DNA of 64,000 nucleotides from Escherichia coli (GTDB lineage: Bacteria; Pseudomonadota; Gammaproteobacteria; Enterobacterales; Enterobacteriaceae): assembly GCF_013122565.1 (NCBI RefSeq), contig NZ_CP053258.1; one strand, 5' to 3'. A model generated the notes under the pieces. That model had not been told where the DNA came from. It was given only the letters and a program-made list of their open reading frames with translations, and made no database searches. Of this stretch, positions 12,441-43,841 are shown piece after piece; positions within the stretch are counted from its first letter, which is position 1; each line of letters opens with the position of its first letter. Position numbers and translations under genes: made by a program.

Positions 12441-12569
12441 TTTTATGCTCTTATCGTGGTTTATCCGCTAAAAGCATAGTCAACAGTTCATCGGCATGGC
12501 GGCGGTGATAGCGCCTTTGAGATAAAACCCGTATTATTGCGCGCTTTCCGTACGACTAAAGTGATTTTC

Positions 12570-14330
12570 ATGACGCAAACATTTATCCCCGGCAAAGATG
12601 CCGCTCTGGAAGATTCCATCGCTCGCTTCCAGCAAAAACTTTCAGACCTCGGCTTTCAGATTGAAGAGGCCTCCTGGCTGAATCCCGTGCCTAACGTCTG
12701 GTCTGTACATATTCGCGACAAAGAGTGCGCACTGTGTTTTACCAACGGTAAAGGCGCAACCAAAAAAGCAGCGCTGGCTTCTGCACTCGGTGAATATTTC
12801 GAGCGTCTCTCAACCAACTACTTTTTTGCTGATTTCTGGCTGGGCGAAACCATCGCCAACGGCCCGTTCGTACATTACCCCAACGAAAAATGGTTCCCTC
12901 TGACAGAAAATGACGATGTGCCAGAAGGGCTGCTCGATGACCGTCTGCGTGCTTTTTACGATCCGGAAAATGAACTGACCGGCAGCATGCTAATTGACCT
13001 GCAATCCGGTAACGAAGATCGTGGTATTTGCGGTCTGCCGTTTACACGCCAGTCTGATAATCAAACCGTTTATATTCCGATGAATATCATTGGTAACCTG
13101 TACGTTTCTAACGGTATGTCCGCTGGCAATACCCGCAACGAAGCGCGCGTTCAGGGATTATCTGAAGTTTTCGAACGCTACGTGAAAAACCGCATTATTG
13201 CTGAAAGCATCAGCCTGCCAGAGATCCCGGCAGAGGTGCTTGCGCGTTATCCAGCGGTGGTTGAAGCGATCGAAACACTGGAAGCGGAAGGTTTCCCGAT
13301 CTTCGCTTATGATGCCTCGCTTGGCGGTCAATATCCGGTGATCTGCGTGGTACTGTTCAATCCAGCTAATGGTACCTGCTTTGCATCCTTCGGTGCACAT
13401 CCTGATTTTGGCGTTGCACTGGAACGTACCGTGACCGAGTTGCTGCAAGGACGCGGTCTAAAAGATTTGGATGTGTTTACTCCGCCAACCTTCGATGATG
13501 ATGAAGTCGCTGAACATACTAACCTCGAAACGCACTTTATCGATTCCAGCGGTTTAATCTCCTGGGACCTGTTCAAGCAGGATGCCGATTATCCGTTTGT
13601 GGACTGGAGCTTCTCCGGCACCACGGAAGAAGAGTTTGCTACGCTGATGGCTATCTTCAACAAAGAAGATAAAGAAGTTTATATTGCCGATTACGAGCAT
13701 CTGGGCGTTTATGCTTGCCGCATTATCGTGCCTGGCATGTCCGATATTTATCCGGCAGAAGATCTGTGGCTGGCGAATAACAGCATGGGCAGCCATTTAC
13801 GTGAAACGATTCTTTCGCTCCCAGGCAGCGAGTGGGAAAAAGAAGATTACCTGAACCTTATCGAGCAACTGGATGAAGAAGGTTTTGATGACTTTACCCG
13901 CGTGCGTGAGCTATTGGGTCTGGCGACCGGGTCGGATAACGGTTGGTACACCCTGCGTATCGGTGAATTAAAAGCCATGCTGGCGCTGGCTGGTGGCGAT
14001 CTGGAACAGGCTCTGGTCTGGACCGAATGGACGATGGAGTTTAACTCATCAGTATTTAGTCCGGAACGCGCCAACTATTATCGCTGCCTGCAAACGTTGT
14101 TATTACTGGCGCAGGAAGAAGATCGCCAGCCGCTGCAATATTTGAATGCGTTTGTTCGCATGTACGGCGCAGATGCCGTGGAAGCCGCCAGTGCGGCAAT
14201 GAGCGGCGAAGCGGCGTTTTATGGCTTGCAACCAGTAGATAGCGATCTGCACGCGTTTGCTGCACATCAGTCGTTGTTGAAAGCCTACGAAAAGCTGCAG
14301 CGCGCCAAAGCAGCATTCTGGGCAAAATAA
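12570..14330 (+). CDS. ycaO: YcaO-domain protein (ribosomal protein S12 methylthiotransferase accessory factor)
   Basis: ORF track 12537..14330; ATG at 12570 (MTQTFIPGK...) gives 586 aa; stand-alone YcaO with no adjacent partner gene. Confidence 0.85.
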   Translation: MTQTFIPGKDAALEDSIARFQQKLSDLGFQIEEASWLNPVPNVWSVHIRDKECALCFTNGKGATKKAALASALGEYFERLSTNYFFADFWLGETIANGPFVHYPNEKWFPLTENDDVPEGLLDDRLRAFYDPENELTGSMLIDLQSGNEDRGICGLPFTRQSDNQTVYIPMNIIGNLYVSNGMSAGNTRNEARVQGLSEVFERYVKNRIIAESISLPEIPAEVLARYPAVVEAIETLEAEGFPIFAYDASLGGQYPVICVVLFNPANGTCFASFGAHPDFGVALERTVTELLQGRGLKDLDVFTPPTFDDDEVAEHTNLETHFIDSSGLISWDLFKQDADYPFVDWSFSGTTEEEFATLMAIFNKEDKEVYIADYEHLGVYACRIIVPGMSDIYPAEDLWLANNSMGSHLRETILSLPGSEWEKEDYLNLIEQLDEEGFDDFTRVRELLGLATGSDNGWYTLRIGELKAMLALAGGDLEQALVWTEWTMEFNSSVFSPERANYYRCLQTLLLLAQEEDRQPLQYLNAFVRMYGADAVEAASAAMSGEAAFYGLQPVDSDLHAFAAHQSLLKAYEKLQRAKAAFWAK

Positions 14331-14661
14331 AATCAAATAGCCTACGCAATGTAGGCTTAATGATTCGTCTGAGTTATATTATGGGGCATTTTTTTAATGC
14401 CCCGCTTTACATATATTTGCATTAATAAAATAATTGTAATTATAAAGTTAAATATCGGTAATTTGTATTTAATAAATACGATCGATATTGTTACTTTATT
14501 TGCCTGATGCTCCCTTTTAATTAACTGTTTTAGCGGAGGATGCAGAAAAAATTCAACTCATTTGTTAATTTTTAAAATTTATTTTTATTTGGATAATCAA
14601 ACATTTACTCCGTATTTGCATAAAAACCATGCGAGTTACGGGCCTATAAGCCAGGCGAGAT

Positions 14662-14676
14662 ATGATCTATATCAAT
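14662..14676 (+). promoter_or_regulatory. Candidate FNR site in the focA-pflB control region
   Basis: aTGATctatATCAAt is one mismatch from the FNR consensus TTGAT-N4-ATCAA, inside the AT-rich 400 bp upstream of focA; TATAAT lies about 10 bp downstream. Exact promoter assignment not resolved. Confidence 0.45.
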
Positions 14677-14735
14677 TTCTCATCTATAATGCTTTGTTAG
14701 TATCTCGTCGCCGACTTAATAAAGAGAGAGTTAGT

Positions 14736-15593
14736 GTGAAAGCTGACAACCCTTTTGATCTTTTACTTCCTGCTGCAATGGCCAAAGTGGCCGAAGAGGC
14801 GGGTGTCTATAAAGCAACGAAACATCCGCTTAAGACTTTCTATCTGGCGATTACTGCCGGTGTTTTCATCTCAATCGCATTCGTCTTCTATATCACAGCA
14901 ACCACTGGCACAGGCACAATGCCCTTCGGCATGGCAAAACTGGTTGGCGGCATTTGCTTCTCTCTGGGGCTGATTCTTTGTGTTGTCTGCGGAGCCGATC
15001 TCTTTACTTCCACAGTGTTGATTGTTGTTGCTAAGGCGAGTGGGCGCATCACCTGGGGTCAGTTGGCGAAAAACTGGCTAAATGTCTATTTCGGCAACCT
15101 GGTCGGCGCACTGCTGTTTGTACTTTTAATGTGGCTTTCCGGCGAGTATATGACCGCAAATGGTCAATGGGGACTAAACGTCCTACAAACCGCCGACCAC
15201 AAAGTGCACCATACTTTTATTGAGGCCGTCTGCCTTGGTATCCTGGCAAACCTGATGGTATGTCTGGCAGTATGGATGAGTTATTCTGGCCGTAGCCTGA
15301 TGGACAAAGCGTTCATTATGGTGCTGCCGGTCGCGATGTTTGTTGCCAGCGGTTTTGAGCACAGTATCGCAAACATGTTTATGATCCCGATGGGTATTGT
15401 AATCCGCGACTTCGCATCTCCGGAATTCTGGGCCGCTGTCGGTTCTGCACCGGAAAATTTTTCTCACCTGACCGTGATGAACTTCATCACTGATAACCTG
15501 ATTCCGGTTACGATCGGTAATATTATCGGCGGTGGTTTGTTGGTTGGGTTGACATACTGGGTCATTTATCTGCGTGAAAACGATCACCATTAA
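14736..15593 (+). CDS. focA: Formate channel
   Basis: GTG start at 14736 (VKADNPFDLLLPAAMAKV...), 285 aa, in frame with ORF track 14562..15593; FNT-family membrane protein directly upstream of pflB. Confidence 0.9.
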   Translation: MKADNPFDLLLPAAMAKVAEEAGVYKATKHPLKTFYLAITAGVFISIAFVFYITATTGTGTMPFGMAKLVGGICFSLGLILCVVCGADLFTSTVLIVVAKASGRITWGQLAKNWLNVYFGNLVGALLFVLLMWLSGEYMTANGQWGLNVLQTADHKVHHTFIEAVCLGILANLMVCLAVWMSYSGRSLMDKAFIMVLPVAMFVASGFEHSIANMFMIPMGIVIRDFASPEFWAAVGSAPENFSHLTVMNFITDNLIPVTIGNIIGGGLLVGLTYWVIYLRENDHH

Positions 15594-15647
15594 TGGTTGT
15601 CGAAGTACGCAGTAAATAAAAAATCCACTTAAGAAGGTAGGTGTTAC

Positions 15648-17930
15648 ATGTCCGAGCTTAATGAAAAGTTAGCCACAGCCTGGGAAGGTTTTACCAAAGG
15701 TGACTGGCAGAATGAAGTAAACGTCCGTGACTTCATTCAGAAAAACTACACTCCGTACGAGGGTGACGAGTCCTTCCTGGCTGGCGCTACTGAAGCGACC
15801 ACCACCCTGTGGGACAAAGTAATGGAAGGCGTTAAACTGGAAAACCGCACTCACGCGCCAGTTGACTTTGACACCGCTGTTGCTTCCACCATCACCTCTC
15901 ACGACGCTGGCTACATCAACAAAGCGTTGGAAAAAGTTGTTGGTCTGCAGACTGAAGCTCCGCTGAAACGTGCTCTTATCCCGTTCGGTGGTATCAAAAT
16001 GATCGAAGGTTCCTGCAAAGCGTACAACCGCGAACTGGACCCGATGATCAAAAAAATCTTCACTGAATACCGTAAAACTCACAACCAGGGCGTGTTCGAC
16101 GTTTACACTCCGGACATCCTGCGTTGCCGTAAATCCGGTGTTCTGACCGGTCTGCCAGATGCTTATGGCCGTGGTCGTATCATCGGTGACTACCGTCGCG
16201 TTGCACTGTACGGTATCGACTACCTGATGAAAGACAAATACGCTCAGTTCACCTCTCTGCAGGCTGATCTGGAAAACGGCGTAAACCTGGAACAGACTAT
16301 CCGTCTGCGCGAAGAAATCGCTGAACAGCACCGCGCTCTGGGTCAGATGAAAGAAATGGCTGCGAAATACGGCTACGACATCTCTGGTCCGGCTACCAAC
16401 GCTCAGGAAGCTATCCAGTGGACTTACTTCGGCTACCTGGCTGCTGTTAAGTCTCAGAACGGTGCTGCAATGTCCTTCGGTCGTACCTCCACCTTCCTGG
16501 ATGTGTACATCGAACGTGACCTGAAAGCTGGTAAGATCACCGAACAAGAAGCGCAGGAAATGGTTGACCACCTGGTCATGAAACTGCGTATGGTTCGCTT
16601 CCTGCGTACTCCGGAATACGATGAACTGTTCTCTGGCGACCCGATCTGGGCAACCGAATCTATCGGTGGTATGGGCCTTGACGGTCGTACCCTGGTTACC
16701 AAAAACAGCTTCCGTTTCCTGAACACCCTGTACACCATGGGTCCGTCTCCGGAACCGAACATGACCATTCTGTGGTCTGAAAAACTGCCGCTGAACTTCA
16801 AGAAATTCGCCGCTAAAGTGTCCATCGACACCTCTTCTCTGCAGTATGAGAACGATGACCTGATGCGTCCGGACTTCAACAACGATGACTACGCTATCGC
16901 TTGCTGCGTAAGCCCGATGATCGTTGGTAAACAAATGCAGTTCTTCGGTGCGCGTGCAAACCTGGCGAAAACCATGCTGTACGCAATCAACGGCGGCGTT
17001 GACGAAAAACTGAAAATGCAGGTTGGTCCGAAGTCTGAGCCGATCAAAGGCGATCTCCTGAACTACGATGAAGTGATGGAGCGCATGGATCACTTCATGG
17101 ACTGGCTGGCTAAACAGTACATCACTGCACTGAACATCATCCACTACATGCACGACAAGTACAGCTACGAAGCCTCTCTGATGGCGCTGCACGACCGTGA
17201 CGTTATCCGTACCATGGCGTGTGGTATCGCTGGTCTGTCCGTTGCTGCTGACTCCCTGTCTGCAATCAAATATGCGAAAGTTAAACCGATTCGTGACGAA
17301 GACGGTCTGGCTATCGACTTCGAAATCGAAGGCGAATACCCGCAGTTTGGTAACAACGATCCGCGTGTAGATGACCTGGCTGTTGACCTGGTAGAACGTT
17401 TCATGAAGAAAATTCAGAAACTGCACACCTACCGTGACGCTATCCCGACTCAGTCTGTTCTGACCATCACGTCTAACGTTGTGTATGGTAAGAAAACTGG
17501 TAACACCCCAGACGGTCGTCGTGCTGGCGCGCCGTTCGGACCGGGTGCTAACCCGATGCACGGTCGTGACCAGAAAGGTGCTGTAGCGTCTCTGACTTCC
17601 GTTGCTAAACTGCCGTTTGCTTACGCTAAAGATGGTATCTCCTACACCTTCTCTATCGTTCCGAACGCACTGGGTAAAGACGACGAAGTTCGTAAGACCA
17701 ACCTGGCTGGTCTGATGGATGGTTACTTCCACCACGAAGCGTCCATCGAAGGTGGTCAGCACCTGAACGTTAACGTGATGAACCGTGAAATGCTGCTCGA
17801 CGCGATGGAAAACCCGGAAAAATATCCGCAGCTGACCATCCGTGTATCTGGCTACGCAGTACGTTTCAACTCGCTGACTAAAGAACAGCAGCAGGACGTT
17901 ATTACTCGTACCTTCACTCAATCTATGTAA
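15648..17930 (+). CDS. pflB: Pyruvate formate-lyase (glycyl radical enzyme)
   Basis: 760 aa [18 protein letters not shown]... with C-terminal glycyl-radical motif RVSGYAV. Confidence 0.98.
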
Positions 17931-17972
17931 TTAGATTTGACTGAAATCGTACAGTAAAAAGCGTACAATAAA

Positions 17973-17998
17973 GGCTCCACGAAAGTGGGGCCTTTTTT
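17973..17998 (+). terminator. Rho-independent terminator of pflB
   Basis: ggctccacGAAAgtggggcc followed by TTTTTT, 43 nt after the pflB stop. Confidence 0.7.
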
Positions 17999-18121
17999 AG
18001 CACGAGAGCCTTTTTTGTCAGCTATCTATACTTTAAGGTGACTGCCAAAACAGACTCGACGTAGCCTTCGAGCTGCGCACCAACACGGCCTCAGATGGGC
18101 CACATCTGGAGAAACACCGCA

Positions 18122-20542: not shown

Positions 20543-21973
20543 TTATTTACTATTCGCTTTACGCGCCAGCAGCGGGAATATCAGTCCTAATCCTACCAGC
20601 ACAAACGGCGTTGCAACATTCAGCGCCAACTGGAAGGTCCACTCTGCAGTGAAGGCTTCCATTTTCGGGAAGATCCCCGTCAAACAGGCAAAGGCGGTAA
20701 AGGCAAAACACCAAATCCCGACGGTCATTGCCAGAGACTTATTACGAATAAAGACATATTCTGGTTTATATTTCTGCGCCAGGCGAACGACTGCAATAAA
20801 TGCAACAAATACCCATAAATAACGCAGCGGCATCACTACCGAGTTAAGATTCAACAGCCATTTATAGAGATTGTTCATATCACCGATGCCGAGAGTCGGC
20901 AGCATAATCAGGATCGCCACCAGCACCAGGGTCAGAAAATAGCCATTAACGGGCGTACCAGAAGCGTTGGTACGACATAAACTGGCAGGAATATATTTGC
21001 TGTCAGCGTCGCCTAATAGCACTTTAAGCGGGGCATCAATCGAGAATACCAGCGCAGCTACTTGTCCCAGGGTATTCGCAATGGCGTAAATCACCATTAA
21101 AGTATTCCCCATGTTGTAATACTCGCCCAGCTTCTGAAAGGCGTAATACTGACCGTTAGTCATTAAGTCATCCGGGATATTACGCGAGTCAAACATCATT
21201 CCCATCGCCAGTGAGCCCAGAATGGCACAAACCGCAACCATCACCGCCAGGCATAGCATCCCTTTTGGAAATTCTTTTCCTGGGTTGCGCGTTTGATTAA
21301 CGTAAGGAGAAATCTTCTCTGCTCCGCCAACCGCGAAAACCAGCATTGAAATAGTGGTAATGTAGGTAAAGTCGATATGAGGAATGAACGTTTCCCAGGT
21401 AATGTTTGTGGTCGCAATATGCACTTCAGTAATCGCAGGCGCGGTTACTGCCATCGCCACATACAGGAGCGACATAACAAACATCGCAATCCCTGCCACA
21501 GAACCGACGATTTTCAGCGATTTCATACCGCGTGAAGCAACCCACATAAAGAAGATAAACAGCACCAGCGTTAACCCCTGTAACGCTACGACTGAATATT
21601 CTTTGATTAGCGAACCGTCGCCTTTCATCGCCCAACCGAGCGCAATCAGAATTGCCTGGGGTTTTTGTGCCAGATAGGGAATATGCACCACCCAGTAGGT
21701 CCACGCGGCGAGATAAGCCAGTCCGGGTCCCATCGTGTGTTTAATCCAGGTACTGACCCCGCCCTTCCCATCTTTGAAGGTCGAGCCTAACTGTCCAACA
21801 ATTAGCGCATAAGGTGTGAAATAGAGCGCAAAGATAAACACCCATGAAAAAACAACCACCAGCCCCTGGTTGGCATAGTTATTAACAACATTGCCAAAAC
21901 CCCAGACAGTGATAAAAGACATCAGCGCAATGTTGTACCATCGCAGCTGTTTTTCCTGAACATTCCCAGCCAT
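20543..21973 (-). CDS. ycaM: APC-superfamily amino acid transporter
   Basis: ORF track 20543..22165; ATG at 21971-21973 (MAGNVQEKQLRWYNIALMSF...) gives 476 aa, about 12 TM segments. Confidence 0.8.
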   Translation of the reverse strand: MAGNVQEKQLRWYNIALMSFITVWGFGNVVNNYANQGLVVVFSWVFIFALYFTPYALIVGQLGSTFKDGKGGVSTWIKHTMGPGLAYLAAWTYWVVHIPYLAQKPQAILIALGWAMKGDGSLIKEYSVVALQGLTLVLFIFFMWVASRGMKSLKIVGSVAGIAMFVMSLLYVAMAVTAPAITEVHIATTNITWETFIPHIDFTYITTISMLVFAVGGAEKISPYVNQTRNPGKEFPKGMLCLAVMVAVCAILGSLAMGMMFDSRNIPDDLMTNGQYYAFQKLGEYYNMGNTLMVIYAIANTLGQVAALVFSIDAPLKVLLGDADSKYIPASLCRTNASGTPVNGYFLTLVLVAILIMLPTLGIGDMNNLYKWLLNLNSVVMPLRYLWVFVAFIAVVRLAQKYKPEYVFIRNKSLAMTVGIWCFAFTAFACLTGIFPKMEAFTAEWTFQLALNVATPFVLVGLGLIFPLLARKANSK

Positions 21974-22182
21974 AGACAAATCCTTCGCCAAAATTAAAGG
22001 GGCATCTGTAAAACGAGGGATTATGCGCGGCAAATAAGAAGTGCGGAAATAGCGAAATGCAAAATTATAACCTGCTGCACATTTTATTTTTAAACGAATA
22101 AAATTTGGAAAAAAGCAAGTCAGATAGAAGAAACAAAAAAGCAGAGTGTGAAACAGTAAGTTCACACTTTGCTTGAATTCAT

Positions 22183-23331
22183 TTACACGTGAGCAACGGG
22201 TTTCGGCGTATGACCGGCGTTGCGAAGCAACATCAGCAAATAGATAAACGATACGCTGGCGATCATGATAAACAATAAATTATCGGAGAAATTCTGCATT
22301 AGCATAGCGGTAAATGACGGGCCAAGCAGACTTCCCACGGTATAGCTCAACAGTAAGGCCTGGTTCATCGCCACCAGTTGATGATGTTCAACTTTCTCGC
22401 AAGCCCAGGCCATCGCCACCGGATATAGCGTAAAGCCAGCGGCACCGAGGATGAATAACGCTGGGGCCATCGCCGCCTGGCTAAGCATCGCGATACTGCC
22501 GAGAATGACGACAAAGACCTGAACACGCAACACCAGCAGTCGACCAAACTTATCCGCCAGACGTCCGATCGGCCATTGTCCGAGGATACCCGCACTGACC
22601 AGTACCGCCATCCAGAAACCAATGCTGGCATTGCTCACCCCTTTGTGATTGAGGTACAGCGGCATCAGGCCATATAGAGATCCCAGAACGATTCCTGAGA
22701 TAATGCAGCCATTCACGCCAAGCCGCGCCTGACGGAGTTTTAGCATTGACGTAATTGACGTCGAATCATGGTTTTCAGCCTGCTGATTCAGGACACGTGT
22801 AAACAACAGCGGTAAGATCCCTGCCAACGTCAAACCTGTAACCCACGGCAATACGCTCATCAGCTCGGTTGAGACTTTGCTGACCAGTAACTGGCCTAAA
22901 AATGTTCCCACGTAATAAACCATCATATACGCAGCAAGCAAACGCCCACGGTTACGTGACGTTCCACTGCACATCAGCGCGCTCTCAACGACTACCCAAA
23001 TCATGGCACAGCCGACGCCCGCGACAAAACGCCACGCCAACCAGCTCCAGAAACCAATCATCAGGCCAAGGCCGGCACAGCCAGCGGCAAAAATGAAGGA
23101 GGCCAGATAATAGCTGCGGTTAAAGCCAATGCGTTTAATGACATACCCTGTCAGCAATGTACCGACAAGGTTGCCGGTAAAATAGGATGAGCTGACAACG
23201 CCTACCTGCCATGTGGACATGTGTTCCTGGGCGAGCCAAAGCGGCACGAGTGTATTTAACACCGCGATCGCCAGAGTCAACAAAAGCAGGCCAGACAGCA
23301 AAAGCATGACAGGCCGGGTATACGTGGACAT
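22183..23331 (-). CDS. ycaD: MFS transporter
   Basis: 382 aa hydrophobic [26 protein letters not shown]... Confidence 0.85.
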
Positions 23332-25800: not shown

Positions 25801-28245
25801 TTACACCTTTTCAACCTGAACAAGGTTTGTATGTGACGGATTCCCCTTAGCGAGAGGAGACGGACGTTGAGTGGTCAGTACGTTAATACAACCACCCTTA
25901 TCGACACGTTTTGCATCCGGGTCATACCAGGCACCTTCACCCAGTGCGACCACACCCGGCATCATTCGTGGCGTCACTTTCGCCTCAATATGAACCTCAC
26001 CACGATCGTTAAAGATCCTGACTTTATCGCCGTTGTGGATACCGCGTTTTTGGGCATCAAGCGGGTTGATCCACATTTCCTGACGGCAAGCCGCTTTCAG
26101 CACATCAACGTTGCCGTAAGTTGAGTGAACGCGAGATTTATAGTGGAAACCTGTAAGCTGCAGCGGATACTGTTTGTTCAGCGGATCCTGATAACTTTCA
26201 AAGCCCGGCGTGTAGATCGGCAGTGGATCGATCACATCGCCTTCTGGCAATTCCCAGGTAGCGGCAATGTCAGCCAGCGCCTGCGAATAAATCTCAATTT
26301 TGCCCGATGGCGTAGTCAGTGGGTTTGCCTGCGGATCTTCACGGAAGGCTTTATAAGCAACGTGATGCCCTTGTGGGTCGCGCTTTTTAAAGATCCCCTG
26401 CTTGCGGAACTCTTCAAACGTTGGCAGTTCAGGAATCGCTTCCCGCGACTGGGCATACAGATGCCGCATCCACTCTTCCTGGGTACGGCCTTCAGTAAAC
26501 TGTTGCTCAACGCCAAGACGTTTTGCCAGTTCGCTGGTCATTTCATAGATGGTCTTACATTCAAAGCGCGGTTTAATCACCTGATCGTTGAAAATCACGT
26601 AAGACATATTCCCGCAGGATGCATCCAGTGCAAAGTCCATCTGTTCGGAAGCGGTGCAGTCAGGCAGCAGGATGTCAGCATATTTCGCCGATGAGGTCAT
26701 GTGGCAGTCGATAACCACAATCAGCTCGCACTTCTTATCATCCTGGAGGATTTCATGGGTACGGTTGATTTCAGAATGCTGGTTAATCAGGCAGTTACCG
26801 GCATAGTTCCAGATCATTTTGATCGGCACATCCAGCTTATCTTTCCCGCGCACACCATCACGCAGCGCCGTCATTTCCGGGCCACGTTCAATGGCATCGG
26901 TCCACATAAACATAGAAATGCTGGTCTGGATCGGGTTTTCCAAGGTCGGCATACGGACAAACGGTAAGCTGTATGAACCTTCACGCGCGCCGCTGTTCCC
27001 TCCATTAATACCAACGTTACCGGTCAGAATCGCCAGCATCGAGATAGCACGGGTTGCGATTTCACCGTTAGCGTGACGCTGCGGGCCCCATCCCTGGCTG
27101 ATAAACGCCGGTTTGGTACTGCCGATTTCACGAGCCAGTTTGATGATTTTGTCTGCCGGAACACCGGTGATTTGCGAGGCCCATTCCGGTGTTTTAGCCA
27201 CGCCATCTGGCCCTTCACCCAGAATATAAGCTTTATAGTGGCCATTTTTCGGCGCACTGGCTGGCAGGGTTTTCTCATCGTAGCCAACGCAATATTTATC
27301 GAGGAATGCCTGATCCACCAGGTTTTCGGTGATCATGACATACGCCAGACCGTTAACCAGTGCGGCATCTGTTCCCGGACGAATAGGGATCCACTCATCT
27401 TCGCGCCCGGCACCGGTGTCGGTATAGCGCGGATCGATGATGATCATGCGGGCATTAGATTTCTGGCGTGCCTGTTCAAGATAGTAAGTCACCCCACCGC
27501 CACTCATTCGCGTTTCGCCAGGGTTATTACCAAACAGCACTACCAGTTTACTGTTTTCGATATCCGACGGGCTGTTACCATCTGCCCAGCCGCCGTAGGT
27601 ATAGTTCAAACCTTCCGCAATTTGCGCGGAAGAGTAGTCACCGTAATGGTTCAGATAACCGCCGCAGCAGTTCATCAGGCGCGCAACCAGGGTATTTCCC
27701 GGGGGCCAGGAGCGGGTCATGGTGCCGCCCAGCGTACCGGTGCCATAGTTCAGATAGATGGATTCGTTGCCGTACTCTTTGATCAGGCGCTGCATATTGG
27801 TCGCGATGATGTCGTAGGCTTCTTCCCAGCTAATGCGCTCGAATTTGCCTTCACCGCGCGCCCCGACTCGTTTCATCGGATATTTCAGGCGGTCCGGATT
27901 ATAGACACGGCGACGCATGGAACGCCCACGCAAACAGGCGCGAACCTGGTGCAGGCCGTCGTAATTGTCATCGCCGGTATTGTCCGTTTCGACATATTTG
28001 ATTTCACCGTCCACGACGTGCATACGTAGCGGGCAGCGACTACCACAGTTAACTGTACAGGCGCTCCAGATAACCTTTTCGTCTGATTTTGTTGGAATGG
28101 CGCTATCGACAGCGTGCGCAATCCGACTAAAAGGTAATGTTAATGCGCTGCTGGCCATTGCCAGGCCGCCGATCGCTGTCGTTTTTACCAAACCACGGCG
28201 ACTCACCTCAGCAGCCAATACCGCATCAGGGATTTTCGTTTTCAT
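25801..28245 (-). CDS. dmsA: DMSO reductase catalytic molybdopterin subunit (Tat-exported)
   Basis: 814 aa; twin-arginine signal (VSRRGLVKTTAIGG), N-terminal Cys cluster, molybdopterin oxidoreductase body. Confidence 0.95.
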   Translation of the reverse strand: MKTKIPDAVLAAEVSRRGLVKTTAIGGLAMASSALTLPFSRIAHAVDSAIPTKSDEKVIWSACTVNCGSRCPLRMHVVDGEIKYVETDNTGDDNYDGLHQVRACLRGRSMRRRVYNPDRLKYPMKRVGARGEGKFERISWEEAYDIIATNMQRLIKEYGNESIYLNYGTGTLGGTMTRSWPPGNTLVARLMNCCGGYLNHYGDYSSAQIAEGLNYTYGGWADGNSPSDIENSKLVVLFGNNPGETRMSGGGVTYYLEQARQKSNARMIIIDPRYTDTGAGREDEWIPIRPGTDAALVNGLAYVMITENLVDQAFLDKYCVGYDEKTLPASAPKNGHYKAYILGEGPDGVAKTPEWASQITGVPADKIIKLAREIGSTKPAFISQGWGPQRHANGEIATRAISMLAILTGNVGINGGNSGAREGSYSLPFVRMPTLENPIQTSISMFMWTDAIERGPEMTALRDGVRGKDKLDVPIKMIWNYAGNCLINQHSEINRTHEILQDDKKCELIVVIDCHMTSSAKYADILLPDCTASEQMDFALDASCGNMSYVIFNDQVIKPRFECKTIYEMTSELAKRLGVEQQFTEGRTQEEWMRHLYAQSREAIPELPTFEEFRKQGIFKKRDPQGHHVAYKAFREDPQANPLTTPSGKIEIYSQALADIAATWELPEGDVIDPLPIYTPGFESYQDPLNKQYPLQLTGFHYKSRVHSTYGNVDVLKAACRQEMWINPLDAQKRGIHNGDKVRIFNDRGEVHIEAKVTPRMMPGVVALGEGAWYDPDAKRVDKGGCINVLTTQRPSPLAKGNPSHTNLVQVEKV

Positions 28246-28415
28246 AATGGCTCACTCAAGCTTGCTCACGATTGATTCCAGTAACAAACCGTATTGTGTA
28301 ATTATTTCTATAGCAGTTCGCTATATAGGCTTGTATACATCGAATGATTTGAAAATCAAAGAGATAGGTAGATTTTCACTCGAAAGTAGTATTACGTGTA
28401 AGTGAGGAGTAATTA

Positions 28416-28429
28416 TTGTTCGGTATCAA
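28416..28429 (-). promoter_or_regulatory. FNR binding site of the dmsABC promoter
   Basis: Minus strand reads TTGATaccgAACAA, which I recall as the FNR half-consensus site described for dmsA; it lies about 170-185 bp upstream of the dmsA start. Confidence 0.6.
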
Positions 28430-28435
28430 AGGGAG

Positions 28436-28463
28436 ACAAAAAAAGCGCCCGCAGGCGCTTTTT
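28436..28463 (-). terminator. Terminator downstream of serS
   Basis: A-tract, hairpin agcgcccGCAgggcgct, then T-tract about 20 nt 3' of the serS stop; looks bidirectional. Confidence 0.6.
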
Positions 28464-28483
28464 AGATTCAGAAAAATTGGGTA

Positions 28484-43384: not shown

Positions 43385-43472
43385 GGTGAGGTGTCCGAGT
43401 GGCTGAAGGAGCACGCCTGGAAAGTGTGTATACGGCAACGTATCGGGGGTTCGAATCCCCCCCTCACCGCCA
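43385..43472 (+). tRNA. serW: tRNA-Ser (anticodon GGA)
   Basis: 88-nt sequence GGTGAGGTGTCCGAGTGGCTGAAGGAGCACGCCTGGAAAGTGTGTATACGGCAACGTATCGGGGGTTCGAATCCCCCCCTCACCGCCA: long variable arm, GGA anticodon, encoded CCA end. Confidence 0.95.
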
Positions 43473-43695: not shown

Positions 43696-43841
43696 TTTAT
43701 CTGCCTGTACGGCAGTGAATATGGTGGGCGGGTGGAGTATGTTACCAGTGAATTTCTAAGCTGCCAGTACGGCAGTGAACGTTCGCTGCAACCGCTAGCC
43801 AAGACGGTAGGTTTTTCTAAGCTGCCTGTACGGCAGTGAAC
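43693..43841 (-). CRISPR. Orphan type I-F CRISPR mini-array (3 repeats, 2 spacers), no adjacent cas genes
   Basis: 28-bp repeats at 43693-43720 (degenerate), 43753-43780 and 43814-43841; plus strand reads TTTCTAAGCTGCC(T/A)GTACGGCAGTGAAC, the reverse complement of the E. coli I-F repeat GTTCACTGCCGTACAGGCAGCTTAGAAA. Spacers are 32 and 33 bp. AT-rich putative leader at 43842-44054. Confidence 0.8.

Follow-up and report, generated by a model that had tools for sequence, protein, structure and literature searches.

The 405 bp between ycaO and focA (positions 14331 to 14735 of the window, the whole stretch of 64,000 nucleotides of Escherichia coli DNA analysed here) form the ycaO-focA intergenic region, where the classical anaerobic control region of focA-pflB, with its several factors, very probably lies. 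This control region is already known and is not a novelty, as the initial annotation had put it, and the occupancy data published for FNR, ArcA and sigma-70 in K-12 map onto the same sites. The textbook oxygen-responsive control region is thus intact in the present strain. Across 101 species, the half-sites for FNR and both overlapping -10 elements, the distances between them, the GTG codon that starts focA, and the blocks for IHF and ArcA are all strongly constrained.

Boundaries and conservation of the ycaO-focA spacer

The spacer is bounded by the following features:

14328-14330 (+): ycaO stop codon TAA, which bounds the intergenic region on the left; RefSeq annotates DNA of 98.9% identity in the same way.
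14724-14738 (+): Shine-Dalgarno-like GAGAGAG (14724-14730) and focA GTG start (14736-14738), read from the sequence, with the GTG kept.
14366, 14382, 14388, 14446, 14501, 14544 and 14602: spacer single-nucleotide differences (SNPs) from K-12.

The upstream neighbour is a 586-codon open reading frame (ORF) that ends at 14330, and the downstream ORF begins with the GTG at 14736. With an average G+C content of 30%, the spacer confirms the earlier description of about 400 bp of AT-rich DNA upstream of focA-pflB; in a sliding window the G+C content is 24-31% within the spacer, against approximately 50% in the flanking genes. The identity of the locus is clear from comparison with annotated E. coli ycaO, focA and pflB loci (98.3-98.9% at the DNA level) and with the K-12 proteins, to which FocA is identical at 284 of 285 positions, PflB at 756 of 760, YcaO at 582 of 586 and PflA at all 246. 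Of 5,426 complete E. coli genomes, 5,425 gave matches of 95-99% identity, annotated as ycaO and focA. For the 5.5 kb from 12537 to 18000, the top match among these 5,426 genomes is just 98.3-98.4% identical, so that the DNA seems to derive from an Escherichia or Shigella lineage absent from this set.

The K-12 MG1655 reference (NC_000913 953609-956632) runs in the opposite orientation to the window, and a K-12 position x (U00096.2) was converted to a window position w as w = 14736 + (953689 - x). In the alignment with MG1655, 398 of the 405 spacer bases are identical, and the remainder comprises the seven SNPs listed above and no indels. Two of the seven are ordinary E. coli polymorphisms and five are absent from the best-matching complete E. 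coli genomes; the FNR site and the promoter 6 elements are free of SNPs.

Conservation was assessed with one genome per species, using a degenerate pattern for focA codons 2-11, which gave 102 Enterobacterales loci; the upstream sequence was usable in 101 of them and included 55 distinct sequences. The block AAGAGAGAGTTAGTGTG, in the part with the Shine-Dalgarno sequence and the focA start, is nearly invariant across the Enterobacterales focA loci compared. Among the 101 Enterobacterales loci in which the codon is present, 100 start focA with GTG, the exception being ACG in Candidatus Sodalis endolongispinus (L104), so the non-ATG start is itself conserved.

The FNR site and the overlapping promoters

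The start-proximal part of the region contains four features:

14662-14675, centre 14668.5 (no strand assigned): FNR binding site ATGATCTATATCAA, matching nine of the ten positions of TTGAT-N4-ATCAA, with conserved half-sites and identical to the K-12 site under a ChIP-seq peak.
14685-14690 (+): perfect -10 TATAAT of an overlapping upstream promoter, probably 'P6A', with a published start at 14699; its -35 position, 14662-14667, is the left FNR half-site, at a spacer of 17 bp.
14695-14703 (+): TGtTAGTAT, the extended -10 for promoter 6, which depends on FNR; transcripts with a leader of 26-27 nt are predicted to start at 14709/14710.
14640-14661 (+): G+C-rich block GGGCCTATAAGCCAGGCGAGAT, conserved, which adjoins the FNR site on its upstream side and covers about -69 to -48 relative to promoter 6.

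The FNR-like 15-mer reported in the initial annotation, aTGATctatATCAAt, lies exactly at 14662-14676, and its first 14 bases are the nine-of-ten consensus match. By count alone this motif is marginal and statistically weak: the 64-kb window holds four sequences within one mismatch of TTGAT-N4-ATCAA, where 2.7 are expected, and when the spacer was dinucleotide-shuffled 20,000 times, 4.8% of the shuffles contained a match of nine or more positions. These figures would be in keeping with a palindrome that arose by chance in A/T-rich DNA or serves CRP, the A/T richness then reflecting just a spacer bound by nucleoid proteins. The half-sites, however, are of the TTGAT/ATCAA type and not of the CRP TGTGA/TCACA type, they are invariant in 101 species while the spacer between them varies, and the same sequence lies under an FNR ChIP-seq peak in K-12 (PMC3688515). 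Conservation and ChIP data together refute a chance or CRP origin, to which we give practically no credence. The FNR match is significant because conservation and published occupancy carry the case, not the motif statistics.

Other palindromes of this kind occur elsewhere in the window. One nine-of-ten FNR-type palindrome of the dmsA type, TTGTTCGGTATCAA, lies at 28416-28429, inside a strong Rfam match to the small RNA (sRNA) STnc130 (28336-28470, + strand, 138.8 bits), upstream of an 814-aa ORF (25801-28245, - strand) that is dmsA by synteny. Another nine-of-ten FNR-like sequence, TTGATGATGTTCAA, is found at 22378-22391, adjoining the ORFs 20543-22165 and 22183-23331, both on the - strand.

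In the 55 distinct sequences from 101 Enterobacterales species, the focA half-sites ATGATC and TCAA show no or almost no variation, and positions 14668 (T/C/G) and 14670 (T/C/A) of the N4 spacer vary freely. No indel separates the FNR site from the downstream -10 in any of the 101 sequences, and all of them have the extended -10 TGtTAGTAT unchanged, at the same distance from the FNR site. Conserved half-sites, a free spacer and a fixed distance to the -10 are the pattern that would be expected of the site of a dimeric factor. The left half-site (14662-14667) reads ATGATC in 54 of the 55 distinct sequences, never the consensus TTGAT. Its position 17 bp upstream of the perfect TATAAT suggests that it may double as a -35 element, and such double use by the overlapping promoter would explain the conserved non-consensus A of ATGAT.

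Published work on K-12 places FNR at this site. The sequence TTGATATAGATCAT at 953750 (U00096.2), of which the window site is the reverse complement, was identified as the focA FNR site with a position weight matrix score of 14.37 bits (Myers et al. 2013, PMC3688515). In the same study an FNR ChIP-seq peak at 953741-953746 covers it, sigma-70 occupancy increases anaerobically at 953695 and 954032, and expression is FNR-dependent and higher anaerobically (PMC3688515). The focA operon was accordingly listed there in category 1, 'directly activated' by FNR, with its best site at -40.5, a position counted from a start that the authors drew from EcoCyc (PMC3688515 Table 1, supplement 6). Fnr ChIP-exo regions at 953406-954037 and 953498-953789 have been described for K-12 (Federowicz et al. 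2014, PMC3974632). FNR is said to act at promoter 6 (PMC3181329), and a review gives a 10- to 12-fold induction of the operon by FNR and ArcAB (PMC11841067).

The position of the promoter 6 start was predicted from the sequence. The distance from the FNR centre (14668.5) to the first base of TAGTAT is 29.5 bp, which gives a predicted start at 14709-14710. This start would put FNR at -40.5/-41.5, in agreement with the published value of -40.5 (PMC3688515). A genome-wide survey reported a different K-12 focA start, 953726, with a 5'UTR of 37 nt (Kim et al. 2012, PMC3415461 supplement 2). It maps to window position 14699 and fits the TATAAT at 14685-14690, and its comparison with the FNR site gave no contradiction. 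Relative to this start FNR is centred at -30.5, a repressor-like position. The TATAAT promoter is probably 'P6A'; a promoter of that name, overlapping, FNR-independent and repressed by FNR, was reportedly described by Kaiser and Sawers (1997). Its -10 reads TATA(A/C)T in all species, with TATACT in distant genera. The several TATAAT-like hexamers of the initial annotation were likewise found, the perfect one at 14685-14690 and other TAnnnT hexamers elsewhere in the spacer. The short leader from 14699 has no special structure (z = +0.75), and the long leader from 14405 to 14735, folded as a single sequence, gives z = -2.6.

These positions raise the question of whether FNR acts here mainly as a repressor, sitting over the -35 of the TATAAT promoter and shutting it off. 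The only genome-wide start read is the one at 953726 (PMC3415461), and the 17 bp between ATGATC and TATAAT are exact, with both elements invariant, as such a role would have it. Against it, the operon is listed as directly activated by FNR, with sigma-70 occupancy and expression that are higher anaerobically (PMC3688515), and 10-13 bp downstream of TATAAT there is another conserved -10, of the extended kind, at the right distance for a site at -41.5. Repression and activation by FNR are compatible, and the best explanation includes both; a mainly repressive FNR is very improbable.

Upstream ArcA and IHF sites, promoter 7 and the ycaO 3' end

Upstream of the FNR site the central part of the spacer carries:

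14423-14476 (+): multi-repeat site for phosphorylated ArcA, TGTAAT (14436), aGTTAA (14447) and GGTAAt (14458), 11 bp apart, mapped from published ChIP motifs.
14516-14530 (-): second ArcA box AGTTAATTAA (14517-14526), with no mismatch to WGTTAATTAW.
14552-14557 (+): conserved TTCAAC, resembling an FNR half-site, with conservation of 90% or more in all the 26 other genera compared, Serratia and Sodalis among them.
14572-14607 (+): predicted IHF site, in which the A/T tract TTTAAAATTTATTTTT precedes the core AATCAAACATTTA (14595-14607); consensus WATCAANNNNTTR.

In K-12, a four-repeat ArcA site was predicted at 953949-954002, under an ArcA ChIP peak (Park et al. 2013, PMC3798270 supplement 4), and it maps to 14423-14476 of the window. 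A ChIP-exo motif at 953964-989 falls in the same repeat region (PMC3974632 supplement 11), and the ArcA motifs of that study map to 14436-14450, 14447-14461, 14516-14530 and 14594-14608. Of these, the motif AAACAGTTAATTAAA at K-12 953895-909 corresponds to the second box (PMC3974632). The features expected of ArcA sites, TGTTAA-like repeats phased at 11 bp and a WGTTAATTAW box, are therefore present in the sequence and coincide with the motifs derived from ChIP. In an alignment of 28 genera, the repeat cores TGTAAT, GTTAA and GGTA are at least 90% conserved in Enterobacteriaceae, as is the block TTAATTAAC, which contains the second box. Position 14446, inside the repeat, is A here and in other E. 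coli and G in K-12.

The core AATCAAACATTTA is the sole match to the IHF consensus in the spacer, with the A/T tract on its 5' side. The tract and the ATCAA and TTA positions are conserved across Enterobacterales, and TTTAAAATTTATTTTT is kept even in Serratia, Sodalis and Hafnia. The SNP at 14602 (C here, T in K-12) lies in the N4 spacer of the core, and the published ArcA motif at 14594-14608 overlaps the core. Sirko et al. (1993) reportedly obtained an IHF footprint at pfl and described a role of IHF in ArcA-dependent and pyruvate-dependent induction. The suggestion that the A/T tracts are of the type bound by IHF or ArcA is thus well founded, given the IHF core at 14595-14607, the perfect ArcA box at 14517-14526 and the published ArcA motifs (PMC3798270, PMC3974632). 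No strict NarL heptamer (TACYYMT) occurs in the spacer, and for this reason no NarL site was assigned.

The initial annotation had treated 14340-14735 as a single control region. This stands for the known focA-pflB anaerobic region, and needs amending for the first ~80 bp (14331-14410), which are the structured 3' end of ycaO and not plain promoter DNA. The features of this part are:

14339-14357 (+): first ycaO 3' hairpin, AGCCTAC-gcaat-GTAGGCT, 7 bp, from the RNA fold; a terminator scan saw the hairpin on the minus strand.
14373-14382 (+): conserved motif CTATATTAC, here TTATATTAT, with a -10-like TATATT (14375-14380); promoter 7 candidate or ycaO 3'UTR RNA motif.
14382-14404 (+): terminator-like hairpin GGGGCAT-loop-ATGCCCC at the ycaO end, a seven-pair consensus stem in RNAalifold, with which the single-sequence fold agrees.
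14406-14434 (+): sigma-70-like promoter TTTACA-17 bp-AATAAT, second promoter 7 candidate, matching at 10 of 12 positions, with a predicted start at about 14441.

Folding of 14328-14420 gave three hairpins with z = -4.69. The pairing of the first is kept in Escherichia and Citrobacter, and other genera pair GTAGGC with downstream bases. Hairpins are present upstream of CTATATTAC in most genera in differing registers, and RNAalifold supported no consensus for them. The terminator-like hairpin is conserved in approximately 80 species, and its two inner pairs stay paired through 27 and 13 double changes. A T-run (TTTTTT) follows the stem in most genera; it is interrupted in Escherichia, where it reads CTTTACATATATTT in the present strain. 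A simple terminator scan of the spacer made no call on the + strand; its one call was a minus-strand hit on the first ycaO hairpin. Two SNPs fall in this element: 14382, in both the conserved motif and the stem, is T here and otherwise a C that is more than 90% conserved, and 14388 is A here and G in K-12, turning a G-U pair of the stem into A-U.

No family reached its gathering score in an Rfam scan of the spacer, and a match to DapZ (RF02551) was rejected at 24.8 bits against a gathering score of 56 (E = 0.19). Elsewhere in the window, a tRNA gene (43385-43469) is followed by two CRISPR-DR4 repeats at 43753-43780 and 43814-43841 (RF01317, 41.7 and 50.1 bits), 61 bp apart, and this pair looks like a two-repeat orphan CRISPR remnant.

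The motif CTATATTAC lies directly 5' of the terminator-like stem and is invariant in most Enterobacteriaceae while the flanking hairpins change. It is at least 90% conserved in Enterobacteriaceae, and TATATTA is invariant in all 43 aligned sequences. Klebsiella and Raoultella keep the hairpin and have lost the motif, which is therefore not needed for termination. The K-12 sigma-70 ChIP peak at 954032, which increases anaerobically (PMC3688515), maps to about 14393. From the deeply conserved TATATT, transcription would begin near 14387, within the 5' arm of the stem. The alternative TTTACA-17-AATAAT is confined to Escherichia and not conserved beyond it. A simple promoter scan of the spacer returned one promoter-like site, no more than in shuffles. 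A third candidate for promoter 7, TAAAAT at 14573-14578, was set aside as it lies ~190 bp from the sigma-70 peak. The title of one cited paper names promoter 7 as the principal target of ArcA. We place it somewhere within 14375-14441 and lean slightly towards the TATATT candidate over AATAAT.

The same features could have another origin, in which 14336-14412 is an sRNA derived from the ycaO 3'UTR, composed of a hairpin, a conserved single-stranded CUAUAUUAC and a terminator, and is not promoter DNA. The strong fold and the covarying terminator stem agree with this, as do a linker that is invariant while the hairpins change and the full-length, if weak, Rfam match to the 3'UTR sRNA DapZ. That match is, however, far under its gathering score, the register of the upstream hairpin differs between genera, the sigma-70 peak that rises anaerobically at ~14393 would suit TATATT as a promoter just as well, and no small RNA of the ycaO 3'UTR was found in the literature searched. 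We consider such an sRNA improbable. That CTATATTAC and the terminator-like hairpin (14373-14404) form a functional element of their own rather than a by-product of termination, either the -10 of promoter 7 or an sRNA seed or protein-binding motif of the ycaO 3'UTR, is somewhat less improbable, if still unlikely. With CTATATTAC as the -10 of promoter 7, transcripts would begin within the stem's 5' arm and would in this way avoid the terminator that halts ycaO read-through. The promoter 7 and sRNA readings of the motif both go beyond the descriptions in the literature consulted. Three conserved blocks, CTATATTAC, TTCAAC and GGGCCTATAAGCCAGGCGAGAT, are possible leads for work on pfl regulation.

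Proposed mechanism and comparison with known systems

Combining these sites, a working model of the control region can be proposed. When oxygen is absent, dimeric [4Fe-4S]-FNR would bind ATGATCTATATCAA, ~41 bp upstream of the start at 14709/14710, where the site would replace the -35 for the extended -10 TGtTAGTAT, and RNA polymerase would be recruited by class II activation. The left FNR half-site would also be the -35 position of the second promoter, with its -10 TATAAT and start at 14699; this promoter would supply FNR-independent aerobic basal transcription and would presumably be occluded when FNR is bound. Further upstream, phosphorylated ArcA is expected to bind the direct repeats at 14423-14476, the box at 14517-14526 and a site at ~14600, and IHF may bend the DNA at 14572-14607. 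Together, ArcA and IHF would add ArcA-dependent and pyruvate-dependent induction by way of the upstream promoter P7, putatively located in 14375-14441.

The ycaO 3' region resembles Rfam RF02551 DapZ, an sRNA from the Salmonella dapB 3'UTR, in having two hairpins, with a terminator-like end, directly after a stop codon. Unlike DapZ, it follows a different gene, and it scores 24.8 against 56, with no established sequence homology.

The closest known system is the focA-pflB region of E. coli K-12 (P6/P6A and P7; FNR, ArcA and IHF), with which the window shares the gene order ycaO-focA-pflB-pflA. The FNR site, both -10 elements of the promoter 6 region, the Shine-Dalgarno sequence and the GTG are identical, and the ArcA repeats and the IHF core occupy the same positions. 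Among the seven SNPs that separate it from K-12 are those in the ArcA repeat (14446), in the IHF N4 (14602) and in the ycaO hairpin (14382 and 14388).

The focA promoter is also like the class II FNR promoters dmsA, narG and yfiD (~-41.5), in which a TTGAT-N4-ATCAA inverted repeat replaces the -35 at a fixed distance from the -10. In contrast to this class, nearly every species has ATGAT in place of TTGAT as the left half-site at focA, a second promoter that does not depend on FNR overlaps the site, and the focA promoter lies within an upstream region of ~400 bp that carries ArcA and IHF sites.
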